Source: Hyphobacterium sp. | Lineage (GTDB): Bacteria; Pseudomonadota; Alphaproteobacteria; Caulobacterales; Maricaulaceae | DNA: 64,000 nt | Direction: 5' to 3' | Assembly: GCF_965217055.1 (NCBI RefSeq) | Contig: NZ_OZ244227.1 | Location: 1,283,652-1,347,651, forward strand | Shown: piece after piece, positions 851 through 19,814 of the stretch | Numbering within the stretch: the first letter of the stretch is position 1 | Layout: every line of letters starts with the position of its first letter | The notes under the pieces: model-generated | What the model was told of the DNA's origin: nothing | What the model saw: only the letters and a program-made list of their open reading frames with translations | The model's database searches: none | Made by a program: the position numbers and the translations under genes

Positions 851-1675
851 CTATGCGGTATCCATAGCCTCGAGCGCGGCCTCGACATGGGCGTTGAACC
901 GCCCCCAGCGCTTGTAGGCGAGGGCATCCTCGGAGGCCGCGCGCCAGCTCGCGGCAAAGGCCGCGCGATCTGCCGGTTCTGCCAGCGCCTCGGCCAGCGG
1001 GTCGAGGCAAATGCGGATGCAGAACAGCACGGCATTCGTGGCTTCCAGCCGAACCAGGGTCTGACGCTCGACGCGCAAGACCAGTTCCTCGATGGCGCGT
1101 TCGCGCGGCAGGTGGTCGAGCCGGTCGCGCATCGCGCTGCCATGCGGCCACCAGCGTTCCGCGCCGAGCTGGACCGTCCAGTTGAAGCGTTCGAACACTT
1201 CGCCGGCCGGCATGCGGTCGAAGACGCGGGCAATCTTCCCGGCGAGGCCCGGCGATCCGCCCGGGACCGGGACATGCAGCTGATGCAGTTCGCGATCGAA
1301 ACTGGCGTCGAGCGAGAAAAACGTCGGCTGGGTGAGGAGCAGGCTCGTCGCTATCCAGCCTTCGCCGCGATTCTCCATGACAACGAGATCGTCGGACACG
1401 AGGCGGCCGGCCGCGACAAGGCCGGGTTCATCGCGATCAGAGCGACGCTGACCGGTCGCCGCCTCGATGCGCGACAGGGCTTCAGCTTCGGCCGGCGCGG
1501 CATCGGTACGGGCGCGATAGTATTTGTCCGGCTCGGCATCGAGCCGTTGGTTCTTCAATGGCAGCCAGTGCGTTTCCGGGTCCGGAACGAGCCATTGACC
1601 CGGATCGATACGCCGCAAACCGACCTGAAACCGGGGCGGTCCATCGTGAAACGGCTTGTAAGGCGGACGGGTCAC
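851..1675 (-). CDS. DUF3445 / heme-dependent oxidative N-demethylase-like protein
   Basis: 274-aa ORF with good third-position GC. The N-terminus [21 protein letters not shown] and the overall layout resemble the DUF3445 family (recalled, not searched). Confidence 0.65.
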
Positions 1676-2064
1676 GCGCGGCGAAGTCCCAGCAAAGCAA
1701 CGAGACCGAAGCCGAGCGCAATCCCCACAGCGTCCGCCACGAGGTCAGCGATGGACGTCGTGCGCTGCAGGATCGGCGAGCCCTGGATCAGCTCGATCAG
1801 CGTACCGTGTGCCACCAGGCCCAGGCCGATGAACCAGAGCGGCAGGCCGCGCCATCCAAAGGCCGCGAGCAGGCCCAACACGGCGAAAGCGGCGGCGTGC
1901 TCGATCTTGTCGGTGCCGAGCAGGCGTGGCGGCGCAGCCAGTCCCGGCAATAGCGCAATCACCGAGATCGCGGCTAATGCGAGCCAGAACATGCCCTTGG
2001 CAACTTGCCGCAGCGCGAGGCTCTTTCTAGGGTCCGCAAAACCTGACGACGAGCGAGGGGCCAT
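1672..2064 (-). CDS. VanZ-like small membrane protein
   Basis: 130 aa with 3-4 TM helices and a [13 protein letters not shown] motif. Its stop overlaps the downstream gene start by 4 nt. The ATG shares a CATG with the bioB start; Met25 (nt 1992) is an alternative start. Confidence 0.6.
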
Positions 2065-3061
2065 GTCCGCAACTGTCCTTGATATCGAATCCTTGTCAAA
2101 GCCGCGCTTTGACTGGACGCCAGAAGAGGCTTTCCGGGTCTATCGCGCACCATTTAACGATTTGCTGTTCGCTTCGCAAAGCGTGCACCGCCAGCACCAT
2201 GCGGCGAACGCGGTGCAGAAATCCCAGCTCCTGTCGATCAAGACCGGCGGTTGTGCCGAGGATTGCGGCTATTGCAGCCAGTCAGCCTTCCACGAGACCG
2301 GATTGAAGGCCTCCAAGCTGATGCCGGTGGCAGACGTGCTCGACAAGGCGCGCAAGGCGAAAGCCGGCGGCGCGACGCGGTTTTGCATGGGCGCGGCCTG
2401 GCGTTCCTTGAAGGATCGCGATGTCGACGCGGTCTGCGAAATGATCGAGGGCGTGAAGTCCGAAGGGCTCGAAACCTGCGTGACGCTGGGCATGCTGGAA
2501 GACGGCCAGGCCGAGCGGCTGAAGGCTGCAGGGCTGGATTATTACAACCACAATCTGGATACGAGCCGCGAATACTACAATTCGGTGATCACGACGCGGA
2601 CCTATGAGGACCGGCTGGACACGCTCGCCAGGGTCCGCGGCGCCGGCCTGCACATCTGCTGTGGCGGGATTCTCGGCATGGGCGAGAGCGAGGATGACAG
2701 GATCGGCCTGCTGGTCGAGCTGGCGCGCTTGTCGCCGCATCCCGAAAGCGTGCCGATCAATCATCTCGTCGCGGTCGAGGGCACACCGCTGGGGCATGCC
2801 CAGCCGCTGGACGGCTTCGATTTCGTGCGCGCCATTGCGGCGGCGCGGCTGATGATGCCGCGCTCCGTGGTCCGTTTATCGGCGGGGCGCGAAGGGATGA
2901 GCCGCGAATTGCAGGCGCTGTGCTTCCTCGCCGGGGCAAACTCGATCTTTGTCGGCGAGGAATTGCTGACCACGCCCAATCCGGACCTGGAACAGGACGG
3001 TGCGTTGATGCGTGATCTCGGGCTGGAACCGATGGCGGCCCCTTCGGCACCGGCGGAGTAG
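2063..3061 (+). CDS. bioB: Biotin synthase
   Basis: Radical-SAM CxxxCxxC ([13 protein letters not shown]) plus YNHNLDTS and GMGES motifs. ATG 2063 ([11 protein letters not shown]...) chosen; the track ORF from 887 is an antisense shadow upstream. Confidence 0.95.
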
Positions 3062-3077
3062 TTGTGCGTGGTTCGAG

Positions 3078-3094
3078 GCTGGCCTCCGGCCAGC
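3078..3094 (+). terminator. Hairpin after bioB (no T tract)
   Basis: GCTGGCC-tcc-GGCCAGC perfect 7-bp stem 17 nt after the bioB stop. No U-run follows, so terminator function is uncertain. Confidence 0.3.
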
Positions 3095-3180
3095 ACCTCA
3101 CCATGAGGCAGGATTAAAGTCGGGAGAATGAGTCACCTCATCCTGAGGTGCGAGCGAAGCGAGCCTCGAAGGACGGGGTG
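3095..3180. repeat. Possible REP/MITE-like intergenic element (two related small hairpins)
   Basis: CCTCA-cca-TGAGG (3096-3108) and CACCTCA-tcc-TGAGGTG (3134-3150), followed by gcgagcgaagcgagcctcgaaggac. This resembles a dispersed alphaproteobacterial intergenic repeat I recall. Only one copy is in the window. Confidence 0.25.
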
Positions 3181-3186
3181 ACAACG

Positions 3187-3486
3187 CTAGCCCAGCCCCG
3201 CCAATTCGCGCAGATATTCCCAGGTGAACAGGCCGGAATCATGGCCGTCGTCGAACACGATCTGGACGGCGTAGCGGCCCACCGGATTGGCGGCGACAAT
3301 GCCGACATCCTGCTTGCCCATAACGATCTTCTTCTGGGCCGGGGAATGCCCCTGCACTTCCGCGCTGGGCGATTCGGTGCGCAAGGTCTCGAACGCGATA
3401 TCTCCGGTCTGACCATCGTCAAAGGCGATCGTCAGCATCTTGCGGGATTTCGAGAATTCGAGTCGTGTCGGCCAGGCCCGGCTCAT
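3187..3486 (-). CDS. DUF971 (gamma-butyrobetaine hydroxylase-like N-terminal domain) protein
   Basis: 99 aa. IAFDDGQTG...[23 protein letters not shown] matches the DUF971 pattern. 4-nt overlap with the upstream Trm112 gene. Confidence 0.75.
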
Positions 3487-3695
3487 CGCGTTTCCGCGTC
3501 GGTCAGTTCGCGTGCTTCTTCCGGCAACATGATGGGCACACCCTCGCGCACCGGATAGGCCAGGCCGGCCTGTTTCGAGACCAGTTCATTGGCGTCGCGA
3601 TCATAATGCAGCTCGCCACGCGTCACCGGACACACCAGAACCTCGAGCAGTTTCGGATCGACGTCCTTGGGCAGAGTTTTCTCGGTATCGGTCAT
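3483..3695 (-). CDS. Trm112 family (UPF0434) protein
   Basis: 70 aa. [14 protein letters not shown] ... [11 protein letters not shown] is the Trm112/YcaR signature. Confidence 0.8.
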
Positions 3696-3727
3696 GCCGC
3701 CTATTTAAGGCCGCATGTGCGCCGCGG

Positions 3728-3961
3728 CTAGGGGTTTCCGGCACCCAGATCCGCAAGGTCCGGGTCATAGTCGATAAGGTCGCCGGGCCGGCAGTCGAGC
3801 ACCAGGCACAATTTGGCGAGTGTATCGAAGCGGACGCCCTTGACCTTGCCATTGCGCAAGAGGCTCAGCTGGGTTTCGGACAGGCCGATCTTCTCGGCGA
3901 GGTCTCGCGCGCGCACCTTGCGGCGGGCGAGCATGACATCGAGGGACATGACGACCGGCAT
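3728..3961 (-). CDS. Cro/C1 (YozG-type) helix-turn-helix transcriptional regulator
   Basis: 77 aa. LAEKIGLSETQLSLLRNGKVKGVRFDTLAKLCLVLDCRPGDLI is an XRE-type HTH. The start overlaps the upstream gene stop by 1 nt. Confidence 0.8.
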   Translation of the reverse strand: MPVVMSLDVMLARRKVRARDLAEKIGLSETQLSLLRNGKVKGVRFDTLAKLCLVLDCRPGDLIDYDPDLADLGAGNP

Positions 3962-4410
3962 CAGACGAAGCCGTCCAGCTCGGCGCGAATGCGCTGCCCG
4001 CGACGGGCAATCAGCAAGAGGACCAAGCCTGCAAAGGCAAGTACGAGGTTGGCGAGGCTGACATCGAGGCGCGCGCCGGTCATGGACGTGAATCCATTGC
4101 CCAACAGGTGCCGGATGGCCGGCTCGGCAATCATCGCCACCCAGGCGCCGAGCATCAGGCCTGCGCCCATGCGCATCAGCGCCCGGACCAAGGCGGGCTG
4201 GAATTCGCCCTTGCGTGTTCCGGCGTCAAACACGGTAGCCCCGGACCAGAACGCCCAGAGATAAAGCGCCGGGGCGAGCAGGCCGAGCCAATCCGTACCG
4301 CTCGACGGCGCCGGATAAAGGCCTGATTGCTTTAATAGCAGGAGAAGTGCCGCCAACAGGATGGAAGCGCGCATCAGCCGCGCCATTGTGGGCCGCAACA
4401 GATCAGGCAT
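3961..4410 (-). CDS. DUF2975-like membrane protein
   Basis: 149 aa with about 4 TM helices. Sits directly upstream of and overlaps the YozG-type HTH gene, the usual DUF2975 partner arrangement. Confidence 0.6.
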   Translation of the reverse strand: MPDLLRPTMARLMRASILLAALLLLLKQSGLYPAPSSGTDWLGLLAPALYLWAFWSGATVFDAGTRKGEFQPALVRALMRMGAGLMLGAWVAMIAEPAIRHLLGNGFTSMTGARLDVSLANLVLAFAGLVLLLIARRGQRIRAELDGFV

Positions 4411-4419
4411 GACATTACC

Positions 4420-4445
4420 TTTCAGGTCAATCTTTTGTCCTGAAA
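4420..4445 (-). promoter_or_regulatory. Inverted repeat overlapping the Shine-Dalgarno of the DUF2975/HTH operon
   Basis: TTTCAGG-N12-CCTGAAA perfect 7-bp dyad in an AT-rich 80-bp spacer. On the minus-strand mRNA one arm covers GAAAGG, 8 nt before ATG 4410. Confidence 0.3.
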
Positions 4446-4492
4446 CGCTAATTATTTTATGTTTTACTTAAAGTCAATAATTTCGCTGGTGA

Positions 4493-5122
4493 CTAGTTCC
4501 CGGTGCCGCCCGCGCCATCCGCGAGCTTGCGCTCCAGCAGGCCGGTCATCAGATCGTAGCGCAGGCGGATATCGTCCGCTTCCAGCAGGGCCTGTTTTTC
4601 CTTGGCGGCAAACGGCGCCACCATTGCCATCTGGTCGACGACGCGGACGATCGGCGCGGCCTCGACGGTCGACCAGTCGCACTTGATCCCTTCATTGGCG
4701 AACCAGCCTCGCAAGAGCGCGGTGAAGCGCTCGCGATCGGCATTGATCAGGGCTTCCGGTGCGCGGCGGTCGGCCTCGAACACCGACCAGTCGACGGCAG
4801 CGGTGCGGTAAGGCGTCTTCTCGTCGAGTTCCTGCCGGATCTCGAAACGCGATACGCCCTGCAATGCAGTCAGATAACGACCGTCGTCGGTTTCTGCGTG
4901 CTCGGTGATCAGGCCCGCGCTGCCGACGGCTTCGAGGGCCGGCCGGGCGGGCGTGCCGCCATCGCGGGTCTGGACGATGCCGATCATCTTGTGGCCGGCC
5001 AATGCGTCGTCAATCATGTTGAGGTAGCGCGGCTCAAACACGTTCAGCGGCAGAACCTCGCCGGGGAGGAGGATCGCACCGCCGAGCGGGAAGAGCGGCA
5101 GGGTGTCGGGCAATGTCGTCAT
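4493..5122 (-). CDS. LON peptidase substrate-binding (Lon N-terminal) domain protein
   Basis: 209 aa. LPLFPLGGAILLPGEVLPLNVFEPRY is the typical start of the Lon N-terminal domain. Confidence 0.8.
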   Translation of the reverse strand: MTTLPDTLPLFPLGGAILLPGEVLPLNVFEPRYLNMIDDALAGHKMIGIVQTRDGGTPARPALEAVGSAGLITEHAETDDGRYLTALQGVSRFEIRQELDEKTPYRTAAVDWSVFEADRRAPEALINADRERFTALLRGWFANEGIKCDWSTVEAAPIVRVVDQMAMVAPFAAKEKQALLEADDIRLRYDLMTGLLERKLADGAGGTGN

Positions 5123-5165
5123 CTATCATGACCTAGGCTGCCGACACGGGCCCGCCAAGGGCCGA

Positions 5166-6098
5166 TTACGCAAACAGCATGGCCGACAGGCGCCGGCGAC
5201 CCGTTTTCGCGACGTCGGAGGCAAAACCTGCGGCTTCGAAAATCTCGAGCAGGCGGGCCTTGGCCTTGCCGTCTTCCCAGTCCTGGTCGGATTCCAGGAT
5301 GGCAAATAGCTGGTCGCTGGCACCCAGCAGATCATTGCGGCCGACGAGCGCATTGGCGAGCTCGAAGCGGGCTTCGAAATCCTGCGGGTTGGCGGCGACT
5401 TTCTGTTCCAGCTCGGACGCTTCACCGGCATCGCCAGCTTCGTCCTTCAGTTTCAGCGCGGTCAGCACAGCCTGAACGGACGGATCGTCTTTCTTGTCCT
5501 CGGGAATATGTTCAAGCACTTCACGTGCCTTTTCCGGCTCGCCGCCGGCAATGAAGACCCGCGCCATGCCGGCAATCGGGGCGGGGTTTTCCGGATCCGA
5601 CTGCGCCGCAAGCGAGAAGTCCTGCGCGGCACCGCCAAGATCGCCGGAATCGAGGCTTTCCTCGGCGCGCTTGAGCATGGCGTCGATCTCGGCCTTGTCG
5701 GGACCGTCGCCGGTGAGCCGCTTGATGAAGTCACTGATCTGGCTTTCCGGCAAAGCGCCCATGAAGCCGTCGACCGGCTGACCGTCCTTGAAGGCAAACA
5801 CGGCCGGGATGGACTGCACCCGCAATTGCTGGGCGATGCCCGGGTTTTCGTCGATATTGACCTTGACCAGGCGGACCTTGCCGCCGGCCTTGCGCACGGC
5901 GTTCTCGATGGCCGGGCCGAGCTGGCGGCACGGGCCGCACCAGGGCGCCCAGAAATCGACAATGACCGGCACCTCTTTCGAGGGCTCGATGACGTCGGCC
6001 ATGAAGTTCTGATCGGTGCTGTCTTTCACGATATCGGCGCCGTCGGCCTGCGGGGCGGACGGCTGGGCGTTGGGATCGGTCGTGAAGAACTGGCTCAT
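5166..6098 (-). CDS. Thioredoxin-domain / TPR co-chaperone (YbbN/CnoX-like)
   Basis: 310 aa. N-terminal thioredoxin fold with WAPWCGPC, followed by TPR-like helical repeats. Confidence 0.85.
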   Translation of the reverse strand: MSQFFTTDPNAQPSAPQADGADIVKDSTDQNFMADVIEPSKEVPVIVDFWAPWCGPCRQLGPAIENAVRKAGGKVRLVKVNIDENPGIAQQLRVQSIPAVFAFKDGQPVDGFMGALPESQISDFIKRLTGDGPDKAEIDAMLKRAEESLDSGDLGGAAQDFSLAAQSDPENPAPIAGMARVFIAGGEPEKAREVLEHIPEDKKDDPSVQAVLTALKLKDEAGDAGEASELEQKVAANPQDFEARFELANALVGRNDLLGASDQLFAILESDQDWEDGKAKARLLEIFEAAGFASDVAKTGRRRLSAMLFA

Positions 6099-6155
6099 AT
6101 CGGCTTTCCTGTCGTTTCCTGCCCTACTTGGAGCGCCAGGGCCGAGTTGACAAGA

Positions 6156-6665
6156 TCAACCGGCTGCAGCCAGTGCGGCAAAGTCGGCAATCAGCGGCTC
6201 GTGGCCGGTCGCCCGGGCAAAGGCCAGCAAATCGTCGGGCGAGATGGCGGTGGTTGCGTCATTGCGCAGCGGATGGAAATTCACCGGGTCATGATCGAGC
6301 AGCGCCTTTTCGATCACGAAGCAGACGGATCCCGACCTATCGTTCATCAGCGCAAAGGCGGTGACCGAGCCGGGGCGCACACCCAGCGCGCTCCACAAAT
6401 CTTCCTCCTTTGCAAAGGACAGGCGCTGGCAGCCGGCCAGGCGGTGCAGGCGGTTGACTGGAACGGCGCTGTCGCCGAGCGCGGAAACGAGCACCAACCG
6501 TCCCTTCTTGTCCTTCAGGAACAGATTCTTGGTGTGTCCGCCGGGCAAGCCGGCCTTGATCGCTTCGCCCTCGGCCACGGTAAAGACCGGTTCATGGTCG
6601 AGCGTTGAATGGGCGATGCCCAGTTCATCAAGGTATCGGAACAGATCTTCACGGGTGGCTGGCAT
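6156..6665 (-). CDS. YbaK/prolyl-tRNA synthetase-associated (ProX-like) deacylase domain protein
   Basis: 169 aa. HTKNLFLKDKKG and the following pattern fit the YbaK/ProX editing-domain family. Confidence 0.75.
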   Translation of the reverse strand: MPATREDLFRYLDELGIAHSTLDHEPVFTVAEGEAIKAGLPGGHTKNLFLKDKKGRLVLVSALGDSAVPVNRLHRLAGCQRLSFAKEEDLWSALGVRPGSVTAFALMNDRSGSVCFVIEKALLDHDPVNFHPLRNDATTAISPDDLLAFARATGHEPLIADFAALAAAG

Positions 6666-6727
6666 GGGTCCGGCTTATGCGGCATTAGAGGCGCAGATCA
6701 AGAGGCCTTCGAAGGGGAATTCGCGCC

Positions 6728-7294
6728 ATGACCGAGCCGGTCTGTTTCTTTGCCTTCCGCAGTCCGTATTCGCGGCTCGGTCTTCACAAGCTGCAGCGTG
6801 CCGGAATCGTCGCGCGCCTGTTTCCCTTTACCGGCCCCCCGGATGGGGTGCCGTTTTTCAATCCGACCGATTCGAAGCCCAAGCTGGACTATTATCTGGA
6901 GGACATTCCGCGCATGACGGCGCGCATGGATCTGCCGCTCGGCTTTCCCGAACCGTTCGAGATCCGGGGTGATCTGCCGCAACGCGCCTTTCACTGGGCA
7001 GATCGGCAGGGTCAGGGCTTCGCGTTCGCACTCGCGGCCTCGGATGCGCGCTGGGGCGAGGGCCGGGATCTCGCCGATCCTTCGGTTCTGACGGAGATCG
7101 CTGCAGGCCTCGGCCTTGATCTGCCCGGCGTCGATACGCTGAAGGGCGATCCGGAGCTTGAAACCGACATGGAAACGGCGCGGGCATTCGTTGCAGATTA
7201 TGGCGTGTTCGGTGTGCCCTTCCTGGTGGCCGGCGGCGCGAAATACTGGGGCCAGGACCGGTTCGACCTGTATCTGGAGACGTTAACCCGCTAG
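6728..7294 (+). CDS. DsbA-family protein (2-hydroxychromene-2-carboxylate isomerase-like)
   Basis: 188 aa. C-terminal GVFGVPFLVAGGAKYWGQDR is typical of the HCCA-isomerase/DsbA-like family. The N-terminal CxxC is replaced by FRSPYS. Confidence 0.7.
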   Translation: MTEPVCFFAFRSPYSRLGLHKLQRAGIVARLFPFTGPPDGVPFFNPTDSKPKLDYYLEDIPRMTARMDLPLGFPEPFEIRGDLPQRAFHWADRQGQGFAFALAASDARWGEGRDLADPSVLTEIAAGLGLDLPGVDTLKGDPELETDMETARAFVADYGVFGVPFLVAGGAKYWGQDRFDLYLETLTR

Positions 7295-7374
7295 CTGAAT
7301 CTTGCGGCTTGCCAAGGCCGCGGGATTGGGCGATATACCCCGCCTCCCGGCGCAAGCCGGATACCCCATGTTGA

Positions 7375-7449
7375 GCGGGCGTAGCTCAGGGGTAGAGCGT
7401 CACCTTGCCAAGGTGAATGTCGTGAGTTCGAATCTCATCGCCCGCTCCA
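7375..7449 (+). tRNA. tRNA-Gly (anticodon GCC)
   Basis: Cloverleaf read by eye: acceptor GCGGGCG/CGCCCGC; D arm GCTC..GAGC; anticodon stem TCACC/GGTGA with loop TTGCCAA; T arm GTGAG-TTCGAAT-CTCAT; encoded CCA. Confidence 0.9.
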
Positions 7450-7528
7450 TTCTTTTCTGGACATCGCATGGCATCCCGGCGTTACGCCGACCGTGTCTCG
7501 CGCCGGCCTTCGGCAATAATCCACGCGA

Positions 7529-8497
7529 TCAGGGCTGTGGCGCCATTGGCAGCAAAGTCATGTCAGGTCGGGTCAGATTGTAGTCCTGCTCGAAGGCTGG
7601 AATCAGCGCGCAACCGGCTTCGGCATCGCCCTGGTAAATGGCCGCGACGATCGCCTGCATGCGCCGAATGGCATTCGTCAGCTCTGCCTGGCTCATCTGG
7701 TCTGCCTGGTAGCGCTCGCCAAGAAGAATGCCGTAGCCGGTGACCAACCCCATGGCGCGCGGCGGCCCATTCCCGTCCCGGCGGCAATATTCGATCGGCA
7801 TGTCGTTTGGTTCGGGCGTCACGGCGGCGGATCCTTCGCCGGATCCGACGAAGACCAGCTGCGGCACGGCGTATTCGACGGCCGGATTCCCGGTGCCGAC
7901 AAACACCAGTTCCGGGACGGCGTACTCGACATCGGATGCGCCGATTCCCACGAATATCAGATCCGGCACCTCGTAAACGATACCGGCATCGCCAACGCCG
8001 ATAAAGACCAGGTTCGGAACCGCGTATTGAACGTCCGGCGAGCCCACACCGACAAAAGCCAACTCCGGGACGGCATATTCGATATCGGCGCTATCGAAGC
8101 CGACGAATACGAGTTCTGGCACAGTGAACTCGACGCTCGAAGCGCCCATGCCGATGAAGACGAGCTCCGGAACGGGATATTCGACGACATTTTCTCCTGC
8201 TCCCACGAAAACAAGCGCCGGGACATCATATTCGATGTCTGACTCGCCAATCCCCACGAAGACCAGGTCCGGAACGGCATATTCGATGTCGCCGTCCCCG
8301 ATGCCCGCGAACACGAGTTGCGGCACTGCGAACTCGACGGCACCGTCGCCGACGCTGGCAAATGTCAGTTGCGGCACGCCGTACTCGACTTGCGGGTCGC
8401 CGGTGCCGGCAAAGACCAATGGCGGCACATCGAAATCCACCGGTGCCGTCTGAGCATGCGCCGCGCCCGTCAGCCAAGCGATCAAGACTGCCATCAA
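7529..8497 (-). CDS. Exported repeat protein: 12 tandem 17-residue repeats (VPxLVFVGxGxxxVEYA) plus a 95-aa C-terminal domain; no family recognised
   Basis: 322 aa. Short signal-like N-terminus (..LTGAAHA/QT, TTG start), then 12 consecutive 17-aa units, then a non-repetitive tail with 2 Cys. Strong third-position GC in this frame. Confidence 0.8.
   Translation of the reverse strand: MMAVLIAWLTGAAHAQTAPVDFDVPPLVFAGTGDPQVEYGVPQLTFASVGDGAVEFAVPQLVFAGIGDGDIEYAVPDLVFVGIGESDIEYDVPALVFVGAGENVVEYPVPELVFIGMGASSVEFTVPELVFVGFDSADIEYAVPELAFVGVGSPDVQYAVPNLVFIGVGDAGIVYEVPDLIFVGIGASDVEYAVPELVFVGTGNPAVEYAVPQLVFVGSGEGSAAVTPEPNDMPIEYCRRDGNGPPRAMGLVTGYGILLGERYQADQMSQAELTNAIRRMQAIVAAIYQGDAEAGCALIPAFEQDYNLTRPDMTLLPMAPQP
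7817..8428 (-). repeat. In-frame 51-bp tandem repeat array (12 units) inside the repeat-protein gene
   Basis: Units VPPLVFAGTGDPQVEYG, VPQLTFASVGDGAVEFA, VPQLVFAGIGDGDIEYA ... VPQLVFVGSGEGSAAVT. The copies are diverged at DNA level but conserved at protein level. Confidence 0.85.
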
Positions 8498-8554
8498 CGC
8501 AGCGCGAAGCGCGCGGTATTTAAAGGGAGCGCGAACGGGAAACTCGCCTATCGC

Positions 8555-8980
8555 CTAGTACTCGCCGACATGCTCGTAGGATCCATCGCCATTGACGTGG
8601 AAATATTGCACGGCGCCATTCGGATCCTGATGCGAGGACATCCACATACCCGGCCCTCCTTGATGCTGGATGTTGCAGGTCCAATCCTCGACGCTGTCCA
8701 GGAGCGAAGCGTCATTGACCGGAATTTCGATCGTGACGGTGCCGGAATAGGCCCGATCGGCATCGAGCGGTATGTCGGCATATCCGGACAGGACGCCGTA
8801 ACCGCTACTGTTGCGCAGATAGCAATAAGTCCGGACCGCAGGAACGTCCGGATGGACGTCCGAGACCTCCACCGGCACCGTGAAAACATGGGTCGGGCCG
8901 GCTTGCGCCGACGCTGCGCCGGCGCCGATCAGTCCGGCGGCGGCCAGGCTGCAAATGCCAAGGCATGATCTGATTTTCAT
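8555..8980 (-). CDS. Small secreted hypothetical protein
   Basis: 141 aa. Signal peptide MKIRSCLGICSLAAAGLIGAGAASA/QA, beta-rich mature part with 2 Cys. Lies 57 nt upstream of the repeat-protein gene on the same strand. Confidence 0.75.
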   Translation of the reverse strand: MKIRSCLGICSLAAAGLIGAGAASAQAGPTHVFTVPVEVSDVHPDVPAVRTYCYLRNSSGYGVLSGYADIPLDADRAYSGTVTIEIPVNDASLLDSVEDWTCNIQHQGGPGMWMSSHQDPNGAVQYFHVNGDGSYEHVGEY

Positions 8981-9328
8981 CGCAAACTCCCCTGCTGGTT
9001 GATTTCGAGACTACCGGATACACCCAGCAGCAGCAATTCGCGTGCGTGAACCTGCCGATGGCTGCGGTGTCCGGGCGGTCATCACTCGCCCTGGCTGCGC
9101 CATCCAGAGCGCGGAGCGGCCGCTAGGGCGTTTCGGTGCGGGCTGAGGGCCCACGCATTCCATCAATCTGGTGCTTCGGATCGGCGCTCACATCGAAAAC
9201 ACCCGGAATTCCGTGTGTTTGAACATCGAGCCGCAATCCAGACAGGGGCATCTGGAGTCAAGCCGACGGAATGCAGTGATTTCATTTAAAACAAAAAGGC
9301 GCTAGCGTCTGTTCCAGAGGGGACGGTC

Positions 9329-11902
9329 ATGCGCTTCTATATCGCGATACTTCTGCTTTACCCGTTTTTTCTTGCACCTGCGTTCGCCCAACCGTCGGAT
9401 TCGGTGCCTGTCTTTGCATCGATTCCCGACGCCAACGCGATGCGGCAATCGTTCAGTCGTGAAATGGCCGAGGCGAATGCGGGTGTCCGCGAGGCCAGCG
9501 CAAACCTGGCCGAAGCGCGGCGCGAGCTGGCTGCAGCGACAACCGCCATAGACGAGGCCGGCGATGCCATAGCCGCCCAATACACCGAGATCGGCCGTCT
9601 GGTCGCAAGTCTCGGCGGACGTTTCCCGGATGAAGTCGCGGCTCTGAACGCAGCGCGCGAGGCCATGGTCGAATCGCCTTCGCGGCGTTCGCAAGCCCGG
9701 ATTGATACCGCTCAAGCTGCATTGGCCCGCGCGGTTGCCGGCACACCGGAAGGACAGTCTCTGGCCCAGGCCCGCGCGCGCCTACCGCAATTGGTCTCGG
9801 CGCTCGAGGCGGCGCGCGAACGCCAGGAGATGGCGGCAGAGCTGGCCGTACAACATCTGCTGGTGCTGACCTCATTCCAGATCAGCCGGGAGGCTGTCCG
9901 CGAACGCGTGACGGAATTGTTTGAAAGCTGGGCGCCGGCACATGTGGTTCGCGTCACGGTGCGAGGCGGCGGCGAGACCTATCATGAAGAAACCTGGACG
10001 GATCCCGATGAATCCGAGCTGATCGAGCTCTTGCGCCTGGCCGATTACATCGAGTCCGATCTCGAGCAGCTACTTGCGCGACGGGAGGAACGTGTCGAGC
10101 AGTTCATCTTTGAAACCCAGATCGCCATGGAATATGCCGACGTCCGGCTGGAGGAGTATATCAACTGGGTCGGCGGCAATAATCCGCCCGGCAATTGGGC
10201 GACTTTCGAGTCATTGCTGGACAGTACAACCGAGATCGTCGGGCTCGGGCGCTCGGGCGGCGCGCTGGTAACCGGCGGAGGCGGCACCTGGCGGCGCATC
10301 CTGCTCGAGATCGGTGATCGTGGCGTCACGATCGGCCGCGACGTTGCTTCGGGCCTGCCACCCGCCCTGAGCGTGGCCATCGAGCTGATCAGCCAGTTAC
10401 ACGCCACAGCCAATCGCGAGGCCGCGTGGGATGTCCTGCGTCTGCCGCATAACGACGCAGCTGTCGACGGCCGTCATCTGGAGACTGAGGCCGAATGGCA
10501 ACGCCTCGAAGCCATCAATACGGCACAGCTCCGGGCGGTGCTCGAGCGAATGCGCGCGCAACTCGGTTCCGACATGCTGGACGAATCCTATGCCAGCCGT
10601 CTGGGCGGCGTCTATCAGCCGCGCGGGCTTGCTGTCTCGATGAGCTATGCCGTCTACCGTGGCACGCCGCCCCGGCTCAATATCGGCTCCCAGGACTTGC
10701 AGCATGTGAATCGCGCCGATTGGGCGTTTTTCGAAATCGGTCTCGATGGCACGGCGAAGAGCGTTCTGAAATCGACGGTCGAAGTCGCTCTGTCGCGCAT
10801 CAATCGCGCCGCCCAGCAATTCGCCGACGATATTGCAGCCGCAATCAGCGGAACGGCGCCCGCGCGGGCGGCTCAACGCGCTGCGCTCAGGCCCTGGCAT
10901 CAAGTCGTGCTGACCGAACTGGCTCTCGATTACGTGCAGGCCCAGATTGTGGCTTCGGTTCAGCGTGACATCGAGTTTGCGCGCGTTGCGCGTTGGGCCC
11001 GCTATCTCGAAGCCGATATGGAACGCCTGCTATCGTTAACCCTGTTACAGAATGAAGGGCGCATCCGCCGTTTTGAACAGCGATTGCTCGAGTTGATCCG
11101 CGAGACCCAGGAAGAGATCAGGGTTGAAATCGAGAACCAGCAAAGCAGCCGCACTCACGGTGTCCGGCTTGAGCGCGCCCTTCCGGAGGAATTCGAGATC
11201 GAAGTCGAGTTCAGCCACGCCGTGACCGTGCAATCGGTGCGTATCGGCGATCTGGAACTGGAGACGCAAGATCACAATTTCGGATTCAGCTGGAGCGGCC
11301 GCGGACGACGCGATGATATCGGCGAAGATTCCATTGCCGGCGGTTTCGTGACCCTGGAACTGGCCGGGTACCGGTCTCCCGACGAAGCGGACCTCATTGA
11401 CGGCGATTCCGCCTCTGTTGCCTCGCTGAATACGGTGACCGGCGCGATCGACGGATATGAACAATCGGCGTTCCGGACGAATTTGCGAATGGAGCCGCCG
11501 CAATGGGAGGCGGCCTACGGCATTGTCCTGGATACCTCGGGCTCCATGGATGGCGGAAGGCTGGCGAGCGCGCAGCAAGCCCTCGTCGACATGTTCGAGT
11601 TCGGATTGCTGAATGAGCGGACCACCGCGTCGGTTACAACATTCAGAGGCTGTTCTCTGTCGGGCTCGGATTATACCAATGATTTTGCTGCCTTAAGCAC
11701 CCACATCCGGTCACGGACTGCGGGCGGAGACACACCGCTGGCGTCTGCGATCCGCACAACGGCTCGAAATCTGGTGCTCAATGCCGACGCCGAACGGCGC
11801 TATCTGATCGTGATGTCGGATGGCGAGGAGAGCTGCAACGGTTCGGTTTCCCGGGCGATGCGGTATGCGCGCGACCTGTTGAGCGGCGCGGAGGAGTTCT
11901 GA
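9329..11902 (+). CDS. Large exported protein: about 700 aa helical region of unknown family plus a C-terminal (truncated-looking) vWA domain
   Basis: 857 aa. Signal peptide MRFYIAILLLYPFFLAPAFA/Q, then a long Ala/Glu/Arg-rich helical part. MIDAS residues DTSGS ... GGDTP ... SDGEE occupy the last 130 aa (nt 11510-11899). Confidence 0.85.
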   Translation: MRFYIAILLLYPFFLAPAFAQPSDSVPVFASIPDANAMRQSFSREMAEANAGVREASANLAEARRELAAATTAIDEAGDAIAAQYTEIGRLVASLGGRFPDEVAALNAAREAMVESPSRRSQARIDTAQAALARAVAGTPEGQSLAQARARLPQLVSALEAARERQEMAAELAVQHLLVLTSFQISREAVRERVTELFESWAPAHVVRVTVRGGGETYHEETWTDPDESELIELLRLADYIESDLEQLLARREERVEQFIFETQIAMEYADVRLEEYINWVGGNNPPGNWATFESLLDSTTEIVGLGRSGGALVTGGGGTWRRILLEIGDRGVTIGRDVASGLPPALSVAIELISQLHATANREAAWDVLRLPHNDAAVDGRHLETEAEWQRLEAINTAQLRAVLERMRAQLGSDMLDESYASRLGGVYQPRGLAVSMSYAVYRGTPPRLNIGSQDLQHVNRADWAFFEIGLDGTAKSVLKSTVEVALSRINRAAQQFADDIAAAISGTAPARAAQRAALRPWHQVVLTELALDYVQAQIVASVQRDIEFARVARWARYLEADMERLLSLTLLQNEGRIRRFEQRLLELIRETQEEIRVEIENQQSSRTHGVRLERALPEEFEIEVEFSHAVTVQSVRIGDLELETQDHNFGFSWSGRGRRDDIGEDSIAGGFVTLELAGYRSPDEADLIDGDSASVASLNTVTGAIDGYEQSAFRTNLRMEPPQWEAAYGIVLDTSGSMDGGRLASAQQALVDMFEFGLLNERTTASVTTFRGCSLSGSDYTNDFAALSTHIRSRTAGGDTPLASAIRTTARNLVLNADAERRYLIVMSDGEESCNGSVSRAMRYARDLLSGAEEF

Positions 11903-12924
11903 TGACCGGTCCGGCCCGCCTGCTCGCGCTCCTATTTGCCCTGATCATGTCGTCCGGCAGCCTGGTGGCTCAGGAAACCGCCGGTAGCGAGGATTCCCCG
12001 GATGCCTCTCCGCCGGTCGACATCGGCATTCCGTTCGTCGTCGACATCGGCACCAAGCACGGCTTTCGCTTTGAACTGAACGTCGAAGCGCCCGGCCTCT
12101 ACGAATTCACCGTCCGTCATGTCGAGGAAGATATCGCGTGGACGGTCAATGATGTGAACCTGCCGCAGTCGCGTATTCACCTGGCGGCCGGAACCCACAG
12201 CGTTTCGCTGGTCGGAATTCCGTTGGAGAACGGACCGCCGCCGGTCGCGACGGTTTTCCTCGCGCCGCCGATCGGCGCGTCGGAGCCAAACGATTTCCCC
12301 GCCGAGGCGTCACCCATTGACGGCAACACTGCGCGGGTCTTTCTCGCGCCGGCCGGCGATTGGGACTGGCTGGAGTGGGCCGCGCCGGAACCGGGGCGGA
12401 TCATCATATTCAACGCCAGCACAGGCGATCGTGCGGAGATAGCGCTGGATATCGGCATGGATGGCCCTGATGGCCTGGTCGCGATGCCGCCGCCCGAGGA
12501 TACGGCGCATGACACTTACGGTCCCTGGCGTGTCGACGCTGCGGGTCCCGTCCGGTTTCGAATCGCCGCGCCTGACGGCGAGGATTTCGTCGCGGTTGAT
12601 CTCGAATTCTTGTTCGCGCCGGATACCGCTGCCAGCGATGATCCGGTTCAGATCCATGTGGTCGGGATCGAGCTCGACCCGGCCGTCGAGGATCGGCTGG
12701 ACGCCATCGTCGCGTCGGGTGGCGGTCGCTTTGTCAATGTATCCGAAGCCGGTCTGCTCGCAGAGGAGCTTACAGCCATCAGCTCCGCCATCGAGGACGA
12801 TCTGGATATTGCACCACAGCGCGGTGGTTCCGCATGGCTCTGGCCAGCGGTGTTGCTCTTGTTGCTGATCGGCGGAGCCGTCATCCTTCTGCGGATGCGC
12901 CGCAGCAAGGCGAAAAAATTGTAG
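11902..12924 (+). CDS. Exported, C-terminally anchored protein with a PPC-like domain and a vWA-C-terminal-like segment
   Basis: 340 aa. The start overlaps the upstream stop (TGATG) with a GGAGGAG SD. Has a signal peptide. EPNDFPAEASPI...GDWDWLEW resembles the bacterial pre-peptidase C-terminal domain. C-terminal TM helix plus RMRRSKAKKL. Confidence 0.8.
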   Translation: MTGPARLLALLFALIMSSGSLVAQETAGSEDSPDASPPVDIGIPFVVDIGTKHGFRFELNVEAPGLYEFTVRHVEEDIAWTVNDVNLPQSRIHLAAGTHSVSLVGIPLENGPPPVATVFLAPPIGASEPNDFPAEASPIDGNTARVFLAPAGDWDWLEWAAPEPGRIIIFNASTGDRAEIALDIGMDGPDGLVAMPPPEDTAHDTYGPWRVDAAGPVRFRIAAPDGEDFVAVDLEFLFAPDTAASDDPVQIHVVGIELDPAVEDRLDAIVASGGGRFVNVSEAGLLAEELTAISSAIEDDLDIAPQRGGSAWLWPAVLLLLLIGGAVILLRMRRSKAKKL

Positions 12925-12959
12925 GACATGTCCTTTTGAAAGGGCACGGATGTTCGCGG

Positions 12960-14084
12960 CTAGCCTGCCATCACGCGCTCGACTTTTTCCCCGATCGCCA
13001 GGGCCGCGGTCAGGCCGGGACTTTCAATGCCGCGCAGGCAGATCAGTCGCGCGAAGCCGTGATCGCTTGCGGTCAGGATCCGGAAATCGGCCGCAGGCTC
13101 GCCCTCGGCGTGAAGCTTGGGCCGGACGCCCGAATAATCCGGCGCCAGGCGCCCGGCTTCGATGCCCGGCCAGTATTCACGGATGACGTCGGCGAAAGCA
13201 TGGCGTTTCGCCGGGTCGATTGAAAAATCGATTTCGGAGGGATCCGAGAGGTCCAGCCAGGTGACATCCGGTCCGAATTTGACTCGATTGTCCAACGCCA
13301 CCGTGGCGTGAACGCCGAGCCCGCCGCGCGCGGGAAGCGGGTAGATATGGTGGCGGAAGGGCGAAGGCCCGGCATAGGCGAAGTAATCGCCCTTGGCGAA
13401 GCGGTAGGGTGGGGTCAGGTGCCGGAACCGCGCTGACGGGCCCTCATACGGGACTGTGGACAGGCCGGTTGCGAGTATGAGGCGTTGGCAGCGAATGTCG
13501 GTGCCGGCCGCATCGGCGAGCCGGATCACGAAACCGCCATCGATCTCGCGCCAGGCGGCGACCGGATTGCCGAGCGCCAGAACGCCGCCCGCTGCTTCGA
13601 ATTCGGCCAGGAGCGCCGTCATATAGCCATGGCTGTCGAGTATTCCGGTCTCCGGCGAATGCAGCGCCGCGATGCAGTGGAGTTCGGGCTCCATCGCCCG
13701 CGCTTCTGCGGCGGTCAGCCATTGCAGCGACTGCACACCGCAGGCGCTTGCATTCTTTCCGATCCGCTTGAGCGCAGGCAGCTGATCCTCATCGGTCGCC
13801 ACGACCAGCTTGCCGCACTTGCGGTAAGGCACATTGTGATCCACGAGAAAATCATAGACTTGCCGCCGCCCGGCAATGCAGAGCTGCGCCTTCAGCGATC
13901 CCGGCGGATAGTAGATACCGGCATGGATAACCTCGCTATTACGCGAGGAGATGCCTGTGCCGATTGCGGTCGCCGCCTCGACCAGGGTGACCTCGCATCC
14001 CGAACGCGCCAGCGCAGCGGCGCACGCCAGCCCGACGGCGCCTGCGCCCACCACGATCGTATCAGCGTCGAATTCGCGCGACAT
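12960..14084 (-). CDS. FAD-dependent oxidoreductase (DAO family, L-2-hydroxyglutarate oxidase-like)
   Basis: Rossmann GxGxxG (TIVVGAGAVGLACA) near the N-terminus and DAO-like length. ATG 14084 preferred over the track TTG start at 14105. Confidence 0.8.
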   Translation of the reverse strand: MSREFDADTIVVGAGAVGLACAAALARSGCEVTLVEAATAIGTGISSRNSEVIHAGIYYPPGSLKAQLCIAGRRQVYDFLVDHNVPYRKCGKLVVATDEDQLPALKRIGKNASACGVQSLQWLTAAEARAMEPELHCIAALHSPETGILDSHGYMTALLAEFEAAGGVLALGNPVAAWREIDGGFVIRLADAAGTDIRCQRLILATGLSTVPYEGPSARFRHLTPPYRFAKGDYFAYAGPSPFRHHIYPLPARGGLGVHATVALDNRVKFGPDVTWLDLSDPSEIDFSIDPAKRHAFADVIREYWPGIEAGRLAPDYSGVRPKLHAEGEPAADFRILTASDHGFARLICLRGIESPGLTAALAIGEKVERVMAG

Positions 14085-14133
14085 CACGCCAGAAGGGCCG
14101 GGCAAAACTGTCCCGTCAATGCCGACGGCCCAC

Positions 14134-15003
14134 CTACTTCAGGAATGCCTTGATCTTCGCCAGCGCCGCAGGCTCGGTGAGGAAGGGCGCGTGACCGGTG
14201 TCGGGCACGGAGACAAACTCCAGATCCGGCTTGCGGGCTTTCATCGCTTCGACCGTCGACACCATCAGCAGATCGGTGATCTCGCCGCGGACAAGGAGGG
14301 TGGGGATGTCCTTCATGGCGTCGAAGAGGGGCCAGAGATCGACGTCGACATCACCGCCCTCGGCGACCGATTCGGCGATGGCCTTGTCATAGTCGAGCAC
14401 GATGGCGCCGTCGGCGGCTTCGCGGCAGGTCTTGTGCGCGAAATCGAGCCAGAAGGCGTTGCCGGTTTCCTTCGGGAAGGCGATCCCGTTGATAGCGCGG
14501 ATCGCATCGGCGGTGGTCTGCCAGCTCTCGAATCGGCCTTCCGTCTTGCCGGCATAGGCGCGGATGCGGCCAATGCCGACCGGGTCGAGCTCGGGTCCGA
14601 TATCATTGAGTACGGCCCGGGCGATTCGATTCGGTGCCAGGGTCGCTGCGACCATGGTCATCAGCCCGCCCATCGACGTTCCGACGAAGACGGCGCGGTC
14701 GATCTTGAGATGATCGAGCAGGTCGAGCATGTCCTGGGTGTAGACCGGAGGTGAATAACGTTCCGGCCTGGGATCACGATCGGATCGTCCGCGGCCGCGC
14801 TGGGTGGCGCAGATCACGGTGCGACCCAGGGCGGCGATATGCGGGGCGAAGTCCTCGAAATCTTTCAGATTTCTTGTGAGCCCGTGCAGGCAGAGCACCG
14901 GATCGCCCCTTGTCTCGCTGACCGGCTCGTAGACGCGATAATGCAGTTTCAGACCGTCATTCGTGGTGAAGAAGTCGTCGTTGAAAGGCATTCCTGGCGT
15001 CAT
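14134..15003 (-). CDS. Alpha/beta hydrolase
   Basis: 289 aa. HGLTRN and nucleophile elbow GTSMGG. The start lies 4 nt after the MFS stop, indicating an operon. Confidence 0.85.
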   Translation of the reverse strand: MTPGMPFNDDFFTTNDGLKLHYRVYEPVSETRGDPVLCLHGLTRNLKDFEDFAPHIAALGRTVICATQRGRGRSDRDPRPERYSPPVYTQDMLDLLDHLKIDRAVFVGTSMGGLMTMVAATLAPNRIARAVLNDIGPELDPVGIGRIRAYAGKTEGRFESWQTTADAIRAINGIAFPKETGNAFWLDFAHKTCREAADGAIVLDYDKAIAESVAEGGDVDVDLWPLFDAMKDIPTLLVRGEITDLLMVSTVEAMKARKPDLEFVSVPDTGHAPFLTEPAALAKIKAFLK

Positions 15004-15006
15004 TTC

Positions 15007-16410
15007 TCAGTCCTTGGGCGGCGCGGCAACGGCTTCGGCTTTGGTGCCGGGCGCGGCGGCCGGCGTATCGCCCTCCCAGTCCTTGCGCAGGCGCGGCGCG
15101 GCCATGAAGAGCAGGACGGACGCCAGCACATAATAGACTGCGCCACCCATCAGCGCGTAGCGCAGACCGTCTTCAGCGAAGATCGGGGTCAGTGTGTCGG
15201 ACAGGAGCCCGATCGAGAGATTGCCGAGGGCCAGCCCCATCAGATTGTTGATCAGCAGGAAGATGGCCGACGCCGTGGCACGCATGTTCGGCGGCACGAT
15301 GTGCTGGAAAGCGGAGAGGACCGGACCGAGCCAGGCGAGGCCAAGCGCGGTCGGAATGACCAGTGCGAAGAAGGTCATCATCAGCCCCCCGCCCCACAGG
15401 GCCAGGCCGAAAAAGGGAACGACGGCCGCAAAGGCAATCGCCGGCACGCGCGCATAGGCGGCCCTGTCTGCCGCGCCCAGCTTGTCGCCAATGAAACCGC
15501 CAAGCCAGATGCCGACGAGGCCGCCGATGAGCACGACCGTGCCATAGAAATATGCCGCGCTCAAAAGGATCTGGCGTTGTTCGGAAATCCCTTCAGGGAA
15601 CAGACCGCCGGGCAGAAAGCTCATGAATTCAGGCAGTTCCGCGCCATAGCTGCGGACCAGGAAGGCGGGAATCCAGAAGAACAGGCCATAGCCCATCATT
15701 GACGAGCAGGCCGCGCCGAAGGAGAGAAACCAGAAACTCGGCTTCGAGGTCAGCTTCTTGAGGACAGCCGACATTCTGGCTGGCCTGGTATCGGACCCGG
15801 GAGGGTCGTAATGGCCGCGCTGGGGTTCCTTCAGGAAAAGCTTGAAGACCGGAGCGAAAAGAACGCCGGCCGAACCGACGATGAGGAAAGCCCAGCGCCA
15901 GTCGAGCAGGCTGGCCAGCACGCCGCCGAGCACGATGCCGAGCGCCGATCCGATCGGAATGGCGAAGGAATAGATGGCGAGCGCGCGGGCCCGTTTCTCG
16001 GGCGGATAATAGTCCGAGATGATCGAGTAGGACGGGGCGACCCCGCCGGCTTCACCGACGCCGACGCCGACGCGGGCGATGAAGAGTTGCCAGAAATTCT
16101 GGGCGAGGCCGCAGGCAGCGGTAAAAGCGCTCCACACAAGAAGCGCGACGGTGATGATCCAGCTGCGATTGGTGCGGTCCGACAGCCAGGCGATGGGCAC
16201 GCCCAGCGTTGAATAGAAGATGGCGAAGGCGAGACCGCCCATCAGGCTCAGCTGCGTATCGGTGAGGTTGAGATCCTGCTGGATCGGCACCGCGAGCACG
16301 CCGATGATCTGGCGGTCGACGAAATTGAAGATGTAGACACCGATGAGGAGGAAAAGGACGGTCGCGCGATAGCCTGCCGTATGCTCGGCACGGGCTGTGG
16401 TGTCACTCAT
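15007..16410 (-). CDS. MFS transporter (spinster-like)
   Basis: About 12 TM helices and FVDRQIIGVLAVPIQQDL. ATG 16410 (MSDTTARAEH...) forms an ATGA overlap with the upstream hydrolase stop. The track ORF extension to 16575 is Arg/Pro-rich shadow. Confidence 0.85.
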   Translation of the reverse strand: MSDTTARAEHTAGYRATVLFLLIGVYIFNFVDRQIIGVLAVPIQQDLNLTDTQLSLMGGLAFAIFYSTLGVPIAWLSDRTNRSWIITVALLVWSAFTAACGLAQNFWQLFIARVGVGVGEAGGVAPSYSIISDYYPPEKRARALAIYSFAIPIGSALGIVLGGVLASLLDWRWAFLIVGSAGVLFAPVFKLFLKEPQRGHYDPPGSDTRPARMSAVLKKLTSKPSFWFLSFGAACSSMMGYGLFFWIPAFLVRSYGAELPEFMSFLPGGLFPEGISEQRQILLSAAYFYGTVVLIGGLVGIWLGGFIGDKLGAADRAAYARVPAIAFAAVVPFFGLALWGGGLMMTFFALVIPTALGLAWLGPVLSAFQHIVPPNMRATASAIFLLINNLMGLALGNLSIGLLSDTLTPIFAEDGLRYALMGGAVYYVLASVLLFMAAPRLRKDWEGDTPAAAPGTKAEAVAAPPKD

Positions 16411-17354: not shown

Positions 17355-17404
17355 GATACCCTACACGGCTCCGGCCCGGAGGCCAGAGCCGTCAGGTGCT
17401 GTGA

Positions 17405-19720: not shown

Positions 19721-19814
19721 GGTGATCTCCCTCCAGCCCTGCGGTGATTTTCGCTGACCTCGAAACACGCACGCGGCCACCGACCCGACAGGGTCCTTTC
19801 ATGTTTATTGCCGC

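Follow-up and report, generated by a model that had tools for sequence, protein, structure and literature searches.

One turn of the left-handed beta-helix (LbetaH) spans 18 residues, and region IV of MpAFP is built from a 19-residue repeat (xGTGNDxuxuGGxuxGxux) that carries a row of Ca2+ and a flat Thr/Asx ice-binding face. Among functional amyloids, the CsgA fold is a beta-solenoid, and curlin repeats are defined by a length of about 23 residues, N-x-psi-x-psi-x-Q motifs and a QX10Q kernel (PMC10192328). We compared with these and related systems a repeat protein encoded in a 64,000-nucleotide stretch of a Hyphobacterium sp. genome (contig NZ_OZ244227.1, positions 1,283,652 to 1,347,651; hereafter the window). 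An earlier, sequence-only reading of this DNA had described an exported protein made of tandem 17-residue strand-turn-strand repeats and had likened it to beta-solenoids and to the amyloid subunits CsgA and FapC. Our searches place the protein in a rare, undescribed family, and the conserved gene order shows its gene to be the downstream member of a conserved two-gene cassette.

The open reading frame (ORF) lies on the minus strand (7529..8497) and encodes 322 residues plus a stop codon. Residues 24–227 (7817..8428, minus strand) form twelve tandem 17-residue repeats without a gap: VP dipeptides recur from residues 24 and 41 through to 211 at a spacing of exactly 17, eleven times in succession, and the consensus is VPxLVFVGxGxxDVEYA. 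V1, P2, L4 and F6 are present in all twelve units, and G8, G10, V/I14 and Y/F16 in 11 of 12 each. At a lag of 17 residues the sequence matched itself at 114 positions, whereas the best lag in shuffled sequences (n = 5000) averaged 33 ± 2.4 matches and never exceeded 44; the periodicity is far above chance. The coordinates were exactly those of the sequence-only reading, and the consensus and the lack of spacers were as it had described them. Its description of the DNA copies as diverged was equally accurate, since units share 54% identity as protein and 61% as DNA (41% at codon position 3, 69–72% at positions 1 and 2), and Tandem Repeats Finder reported nothing within the repeat region. The 204 residues of the array include 30 Asp and Glu, no Lys, Arg or His and no Cys, for a net charge of about −30, and they are very hydrophobic (grand average of hydropathicity, GRAVY, +0.73; V+L+I+F about 38%), with N+Q at 3.9%. 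Positions 5, 7 and 9, on the second face of the long strand, are aliphatic in this protein, while positions 3, 11, 13 and 15 are acidic. The repeat gene is present in a single copy within the window.

We then compared the gene with its orthologs, using related loci and proteins numbered with the prefixes L and P, respectively. Ortholog differences reached 43–47% at third codon positions as against 14–28% at positions 1 and 2, an excess indicating that the ORF is a real gene under purifying selection. Window positions 7426–9400 were reproduced without any difference in three independent assemblies; a fourth run carries a variant of about 97% identity, in which seven mostly non-synonymous changes cluster in the codons around the start of the repeat gene. 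Base composition at the cassette is native. Repeats at the same position in different species agreed at 13–15 of 17 residues, compared with 6–13 of 17 for different repeats within one protein; it follows that the array is old, with every unit maintained individually, which bears out the earlier view that selection, rather than recent duplication, keeps the periodicity.

The number of units was nevertheless variable: twelve in the window and L009, eleven in L007 and L001, eight in L008 and six in L006. L006 and L009, both metagenomic variants, are 95–98% identical in the flanks of the array (leader and tail), and the L009 array (7695–8582) is longer than that of L006 (764–1345) by exactly six units, an in-register block. 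A contig of low depth in run X5 skips 271 nt within the array (window 7948–8220). Such differences reflect either natural polymorphism in repeat number or a collapse of the array in some assemblies.

When Pfam, NCBIfam and PDB sequences were searched with the repeat protein, nothing rose above noise and no family was identified, in keeping with the earlier statement that none was recognised. A word-indexed search of 5.8 billion proteins recovered two relatives. An exhaustive hmmsearch of 1.84 billion representatives with a three-repeat profile yielded 23 proteins at E ≤ 1e-3, seven of them at E ≤ 1e-10. About 15 of the 23 are bacterial, with 17–21-residue [VA]PxLx[FI]xG repeats; at least four (P0006, P0008, P0010 and P0017) look eukaryotic and spurious, the last three resembling neuropeptide precursors. 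When the word-indexed database was searched with a profile of alignment A4 (24 repeat segments from 11 proteins), nothing was returned, known orthologs included, a result of insensitivity that carries no weight as evidence. The closest genome match was a Hyphobacterium sp. metagenome-assembled genome (NZ_OZ245930.1, 67% identity). Named relatives are annotated as 'hypothetical protein', one cluster (P0007) coming from Pontivivens insulae (WP_108780674.1 / RED18018.1). The relatives come mostly from marine samples, and one close variant from an algae-metagenome run. They contain no Pfam or NCBIfam domain, and the repeat motif was found in none of the papers searched.

The only statistically notable family match was to NCBIfam ZmpA (NF046017), of which model positions 421–515 of 2052 aligned with window residues 125–217 and with P0002 residues 21–113 (E 7e-8 to 8e-9). 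Membership was rejected: the match reflects local similarity to a repeat-bearing stretch of the model, and its 30–33 bits lie far under the 3000-bit cutoff.

Within this provisional family, at least five tandem units of 17–21 residues follow directly on a signal peptide, with L4 and G8 invariant and P2 nearly so, and the window protein has all of these features. Its relatives (the P0007 cluster, the NZ_OZ245930.1 locus, P0002, P0003, P0005, P0020, P0019 and P0023) carry the same repeats after a signal peptide and then a Cys-containing C-terminal domain, and for most of them the gene just upstream encodes a small secreted protein with a Cys pair. The relatives differ in tail type, repeat number, period and the chemistry of exposed positions, and all of them lack a name, a Pfam domain and a studied function. 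Across alignment A4, conservation was confined to the even-numbered positions plus V1, and in distant relatives positions 5 and 7 turned polar (R, Q, E, K or S). This alternation is that expected of a beta strand with residues pointing in and out and one buried face.

Behind the repeats lies a C-terminal domain of 95 residues (residues 228–322; 7532..7816, minus strand), made up of a PEPNDMPIEYC linker and three predicted helices (residues 245–264, 270–288 and 292–305). Block-mean predicted local distance difference test (pLDDT) values for these helices were 51–80 in a single-sequence AlphaFold2 (AF2) run. Its length and its two Cys, Cys238 and Cys296, were as originally described, and it has no PDB sequence match. 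The tail is the best-conserved part of the protein, with 87–95% identity among close orthologs compared with 65–68% for the repeats. It is also exchangeable. At L001, the partner protein encoded upstream (see below) is 84% identical and the repeats of P0002 are 66–73% identical, but the tail is an unrelated one of about 215 residues. The tails of L008, P0003, P0005 and P0020 end in YC[YW]DAA...C and that of P0002 in a looser HCYHAP...C, while class-B proteins carry a third type; homologous repeats are in all followed by tails of at least three unrelated types.

Directly upstream of the repeat gene, on the same strand, lies the gene of a 141-residue secreted protein (8555..8980, minus strand), hereafter the partner. 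A GGGGAG Shine-Dalgarno sequence stands 7 nt ahead of its ATG, and its canonical signal peptide, MKIRSCLGICSLAAAGLIGAGAASA with cleavage before QA, is followed by a mature domain of about 115 residues with two invariant Cys and an invariant FTVPV motif (alignment A7). Partner homologs lie immediately upstream in L001, L006–L010, L011, L014 and L017. Identity was 84–91% in orthologous loci, and homologs directly upstream of distant repeat genes were still recognisable (L017, 36%, E 4e-28; L011, 33%, E 2e-14; L014, 28%, E 1e-10). The cassette has a recurrent signature, also present in the window: the gene just ahead of the repeat gene, in the same orientation, encodes a secreted two-Cys protein of 140–160 residues (FTVPV...C...W/Y-x-C). 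In class B, loci L013 and L015 (Pontivivens) have a conserved small secreted Cys protein of their own in this position, whose weak profile similarity no more than suggests homology to the partner (hhalign E 0.0012, probability 19%), and the P0009-type locus L016 has no such small secreted neighbour. The partner has no Pfam, NCBIfam or PDB match. No locus was confirmed when metagenome contigs were scanned with alignments A7 (partner) and A9 (class A). The proteins P0004 and P0012 were considered as fusions of a partner-like N-terminal domain with repeats and were rejected, as neither BLASTP nor the A7 hidden Markov model gave a significant match. The conserved Cys pairs of tail and partner fit an oxidising compartment.

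Several observations concern the annotation and setting of these genes. Antisense ORFs of 65–109 residues on the plus strand (window 7740–8453) cross the repeats with a periodicity of their own (e.g. SGTAYS...PTKTS); they arise as a side effect of the 51-nt period, and gene callers could be misled by them. At L008 (9423–11461), the gene caller took an antisense ORF (10454–11137, minus strand) and missed the 334-residue repeat gene (10457–11461, plus strand). An IS240-type transposase fragment lies just upstream of the partner gene at the same locus.

Export was claimed in the sequence-only reading on the basis of a short signal sequence, and this holds better for the family than for the window protein. 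The coding sequence (7529..8497, minus strand, 322 residues) could begin at TTG 8497 or at ATG 8494, the two codons being consecutive. The resulting 15-residue leader, MMAVLIAWLTGAAHA (8453..8497, minus strand), is followed by QT and ends in an AxA motif with cleavage before Q; AxA or AxS before Q is kept in close orthologs, and L010 has AYG before Q. These features suggest a signal peptide, albeit a short one that contains no K or R and lacks a basic n-region. The first repeat begins 8 residues past the predicted cleavage site. The called proteins P0007, P0009, P0020 and P0023 have canonical leaders, and so do L008, L014 and L017 when read from upstream starts. Export is well supported at the level of the family and is probable for the window protein.

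A junction of 57 nt, or 19 codons (8498..8554, minus strand), separates the TAG stop of the partner from the first canonical start of the repeat gene. Both genes share its reading frame, and it has no indels across six lineages. No Shine-Dalgarno sequence is visible ahead of the repeat-gene start, the RNA structure of the junction was not more stable than that of shuffles (z = +1.3), and scans for promoters and terminators near the cassette were uninformative. We compared the leader and junction of the window (8453–8557, minus strand) with those of L017 (1422–1525), L008 (10424–10530) and L009 (7554–7660), among others. In L017 and L008, a TTG at junction codon 10/11 opens textbook leaders, MKICQALFAGLATSLSVLVGGTAMA and MTYLTRLVALSAGIAVLGAGWACA, respectively, each followed by Q. 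The homologous codon is TTT in the window, TTC in L007 and L001, TTA in L009 and CTG in L010. L006 and L009 have TGG at the downstream start position and so no ATG, GTG or TTG in the leader. The junction appears to be a remnant of the n-region of a longer ancestral signal peptide. As the TTG is kept in L017 and L008 but changed elsewhere, the ancestral upstream start seems to have disappeared, with a start further downstream taking its place. The true start codon of the repeat gene is uncertain, and re-initiation after the partner is a reasonable guess for its mechanism.

We also considered programmed stop readthrough, which would fuse partner and repeat protein, because the two genes share a frame with a single stop between them in most loci. 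It was judged unlikely: L011 is in a different frame, L014 has two stops, the TTG of L017 and L008 gives a canonical leader, and the downstream segment resembles a cleavable signal peptide. Neither the start-codon problem nor the partner gene and the exchangeable tails had featured in the sequence-only reading.

Structure prediction gave a periodic picture of the repeats. From the single sequence, AF2 returned a mean pLDDT of 60.3 and a predicted template modelling score (pTM) of 0.51, with a 7-residue strand, a turn and a 2–3-residue strand in each unit. With a 10-member family alignment the repeat pattern was the same at a pLDDT of 52.8 (five models, 34 to 53), and the tail fold was lost, probably from misalignment of non-homologous tails. 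Foldseek matches in the PDB were nearly all beta-helices, namely GlmU, LpxA, LpxD, tapirins, the HpmA and HxuA two-partner secretion (TPS) domains, VacA p55 and MpAFP, and the list further included a Lolium ice-binding protein and FapC (9u4u). The beta-solenoid proposed in the sequence-only reading is the most likely fold, mainly on the grammar of the repeats; the predicted periodic strands and the beta-helical matches speak for it weakly, given the low pLDDT and the Foldseek E values (all at or above 0.2).

None of the top matches offers a family for the protein. The hexapeptide enzymes GlmU, LpxA and LpxD led the list, and their 18-residue turn is close to the proposed 17-residue rung. However, they are cytoplasmic trimeric acyltransferases, whereas the window protein has a leader and no enzyme domain; there was no Pfam match to the hexapeptide repeat (PF00132; [LIV]-G-x4, three per turn), and the Foldseek values were poor (E 0.24–9, TM ≤ 0.2). 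Tapirins, HpmA and HxuA, VacA p55 and MpAFP region IV share with the proposed protein an extracellular beta-helix rod that serves as a scaffold for a functional tip. Their rungs are longer and irregular, and they depend on dedicated partners (TpsB, a type I secretion system (T1SS) or an autotransporter) that are absent at the window locus.

The explanation that we favour, tentatively and as something short of probable, is an exported, variable-length, beta-solenoid-like rod with a conserved, exchangeable end domain that works with a small secreted partner. The cassette would encode two Sec-exported proteins. The repeat protein is modular, with a short leader, twelve strand-turn-strand units and an end domain of three predicted helices that would contain a disulfide. 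Its repeats would stack one unit per rung into a rod about 6 nm long, with L4, F6, V/I14, Y/F16 and V1 in the core and G8-x-G10 and A17-V1-P2 at the corners. Because only core positions are conserved and unit number varies from 6 to 12, the array would act as a length-variable scaffold. Specificity would lie in the end domain and the partner, since these are better conserved (87–95% and 84–91%) than the repeats (65–68%) and tails swap. The aliphatic stripe at positions 5, 7 and 9 would likely be an interface, whether for self-association, for the partner or for a hydrophobic surface, and the other face of the rod (positions 3, 11, 13 and 15) would be acidic. The partner might serve as a cap, an anchor or a chaperone, and the rod might end up in the periplasm or at the cell surface.

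Several points weigh against this explanation. AF2 confidence was low (pLDDT 60 and 53), AF2 over-predicts beta-solenoids for repeat sequences (PMC11795689), and no Foldseek match was significant (best E 0.24, TM ≤ 0.31). The window leader is atypically short and uncharged, and the lineage of L006 and L009 has no canonical start codon in it. A Pfam scan of the main ORFs from 887 to 19780 found no outer-membrane secretion system, anchor or sorting signal, so that a surface location is unsupported and the protein may be periplasmic. The partner and all three tail types match no domain of known function, and the display of a binding domain is suggested solely by conservation patterns. We found no RNA-seq run containing the locus and no expression data. 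The results show the anatomy of the repeats, the pattern of conservation, the two-gene cassette, the exchange of tails, the variable unit number, signal peptides at the level of the family and the lack of a known family; the fold, the final location, the scaffold-and-display role and any role of the partner are inferences.

The lack of secretion genes favours a credible though unlikely alternative, in which two soluble or envelope-associated proteins stay in the periplasm with no surface role, for example a structural or ion-buffering one, and the repeats form a stable acidic beta domain. The leaders are all of the Sec type, and no secretion or anchoring genes lie nearby. The Pfam scan instead returned biotin-synthase-like radical SAM, Lon N-terminal, thioredoxin-TPR, tRNA-editing, DsbA-like, VWA, DAO, hydrolase, MFS and TonB-receptor domains. 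This is a housekeeping and redox context (DsbA-like and thioredoxin-TPR, with a peroxiredoxin in other loci), and at L001 the cassette is followed by a 131-residue protein and an OmpA-family gene. However, no neighbour other than the partner is conserved from one locus to another, variable repeat numbers and swapped tails are seen more typically in proteins that are exposed at the surface or take part in interactions, and P0009 has a near-threshold match to a type IX secretion system (T9SS) sorting domain (20.1 bits against a cutoff of 23).

The flanks of the cassette differ accordingly from locus to locus. In the window, tRNA-Gly(GCC) (7375–7449, plus strand) lies about 80 nt downstream of the repeat-gene stop; a peroxiredoxin gene occupies this position in L006 and L007 and opposite-strand genes do so in L008, L011 and L014. 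The exchange of tRNA-Gly for peroxiredoxin shows that the downstream flank has been rearranged between relatives. Between the partner gene and a DAO-hydrolase-MFS block, the window carries two ORFs (9329–12924, plus strand), one for a secreted protein of 857 residues that has a VWA domain at its C-terminus and one of 340 residues without a Pfam match; in L009 the DAO gene directly abuts the partner, and the two window ORFs look like an insertion in the window lineage. A VWA protein is also found near the class-B relative in L013. At L001 (4953–6265), the variant whose long tail is rich in beta structure, 6 nt separate the cassette from the 131-residue ORF, which has no Pfam match, and neither this ORF nor the OmpA-family gene had a tblastn match in the window or L007.

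The amyloid analogy of the sequence-only reading leads to a further alternative, which we consider unlikely: a functional-amyloid or fibre subunit whose open-ended stack polymerises end to end outside the cell, as CsgA and FapC do, with the partner as nucleator, chaperone or cap. The protein resembles CsgA (Curlin_rpt, PF07012) in being secreted and made almost wholly of strand-arc-strand repeats with Gly-containing arcs, its G-x-G arcs recalling the X-G-X-X arcs of curlins (PMC10192328), and it resembles Pseudomonas FapC as a secreted, repeat-containing, beta-rich subunit. The first repeat begins so close to the predicted cleavage site that there would be no N-terminal cap, the aliphatic stripe is exposed, a small secreted partner gene is obligatory, and FapC appears in the Foldseek list. 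However, where CsgA exposes polar faces, those of the window protein are hydrophobic and acidic, and a conserved globular C-terminal domain, exchangeable tails and a charge of about −30 disfavour homotypic stacking. No Curlin_rpt or other Pfam match was obtained at E ≤ 1, hhalign of repeat profile A3 against a Pfam-verified curlin gave a probability of 0.04%, and the repeats contain neither a QX10Q kernel nor an N.{5}Q motif. N and Q are scarce, and the unit has 17 residues compared with about 23 in curlins. Pfam found no csgB or csgE/F/G, nor FapF-type or other fap genes, among the scanned neighbours. FapC gave no sequence match and only a weak structural one (9u4u_A, E 2.8, TM 0.06–0.09), and the pLDDT of 53–60 compares with a mean of 83 for CsgA homologs (PMC10192328). 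The L011 contig, moreover, encodes a genuine curlin besides the cassette (170 residues, Curlin_rpt E 5.9e-27), accompanied by a CsgH-like gene (25.5 bits, cutoff 27); the two (14170–16111, minus strand) lie about 5 kb from the cassette across unrelated genes. The analogy therefore failed on every membership feature tested, yet amyloid-like behaviour, though unproven, is a minority possibility.

A more elaborate proposal joins elements of the favoured rod and of the fibre, and we give it a similarly small chance. It envisages a hitherto unrecognised two-component surface-fibre or functional-amyloid system of marine Alphaproteobacteria, with the uncapped N-terminal edge and the aliphatic stripe as the sites at which the 17-residue-per-rung solenoid would polymerise or dock. 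The partner, whose invariant N-terminal strand FTVPV resembles the (Y/F)-x-VP-x-L-V of the repeats, would template, cap or anchor it by strand augmentation, and the exchangeable tails would set binding, for instance to algal or diatom surfaces.

It is rather unlikely, in our view, that the repeats do not fold as a solenoid at all, being disordered or of another, non-stacked beta structure, and that the AF2 picture is a repeat artefact. The low pLDDT of both runs, the spread of the alignment-based models, the documented solenoid bias (PMC11795689) and the lack of a significant structural match speak for this. Disorder is at odds with the hydrophobicity of the array, including its V+L+I+F content. 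The strict i/i+2 conservation and the invariant turn Gly and Pro persist across distant relatives, and the artefact is triggered by perfect repeats, whereas those of the window protein are imperfect (54% identity).

Improbable, too, is a Ca2+-dependent beta-roll or an ice- or mineral-binding solenoid, in which acidic G-x-G-D/E-x-D turns would bind Ca2+ in seawater and drive folding, as happens in RTX rolls or the region IV solenoid of MpAFP. The idea draws on the 30 acidic and no basic residues of the array, on turns such as GIGDGD, GTGDPQ and GTGNPA, on the marine origin of the relatives and on MpAFP (3p4g) in the Foldseek list. A few window turns have the form GTGDP or GTGNP. The match was weak (E 5.7–7.5, TM 0.24–0.29), and Thr/Asn ladders are absent. 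Relatives do not keep the acidic residues of the turns, which in them include GVSAPD, GTNPPT, GIGSRTQ and GVGDQTK. There was no match to HemolysinCabind (PF00353) or any other Pfam family, the 17-residue G-x-G-[DE]-x-[D] spacing misfits the GGxGxDxUx of RTX proteins, and RTX proteins carry a C-terminal T1SS signal whereas the window protein has an N-terminal, Sec-type leader and no such signal. Lastly, a polymorphic effector of the CdiA or Rhs kind, with a conserved repeat stalk to deliver a variable toxic domain at its C-terminus, is very improbable: homologous repeats do bear unrelated C-terminal domains and L001 has a small ORF 6 nt downstream, but no immunity-like gene is conserved downstream (a tRNA, peroxiredoxin or opposite-strand genes stand there), the tails match no toxin family, there are no TPS, type VI (T6SS) or type VII (T7SS) secretion genes, and the proteins are small.

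Bacterial members of the family number about 15 among 1.84 billion representatives, and this rarity limits how important it is in general. The erosion of its start codon offers a compact natural case for minimal leaders and for non-canonical or re-initiation starts. If the fold and role of the favoured rod are true, the cassette would represent a new sequence family of bacterial beta-solenoid scaffold, with an unusually short 17-residue rung, a partner and plug-in end domains. It would then enlarge the short list of solenoid and amyloid-like building blocks found in nature, of relevance to envelope and matrix architecture and to the design of protein materials, and would provide a handle on the surface biology of the organisms that carry it, which are mostly marine.

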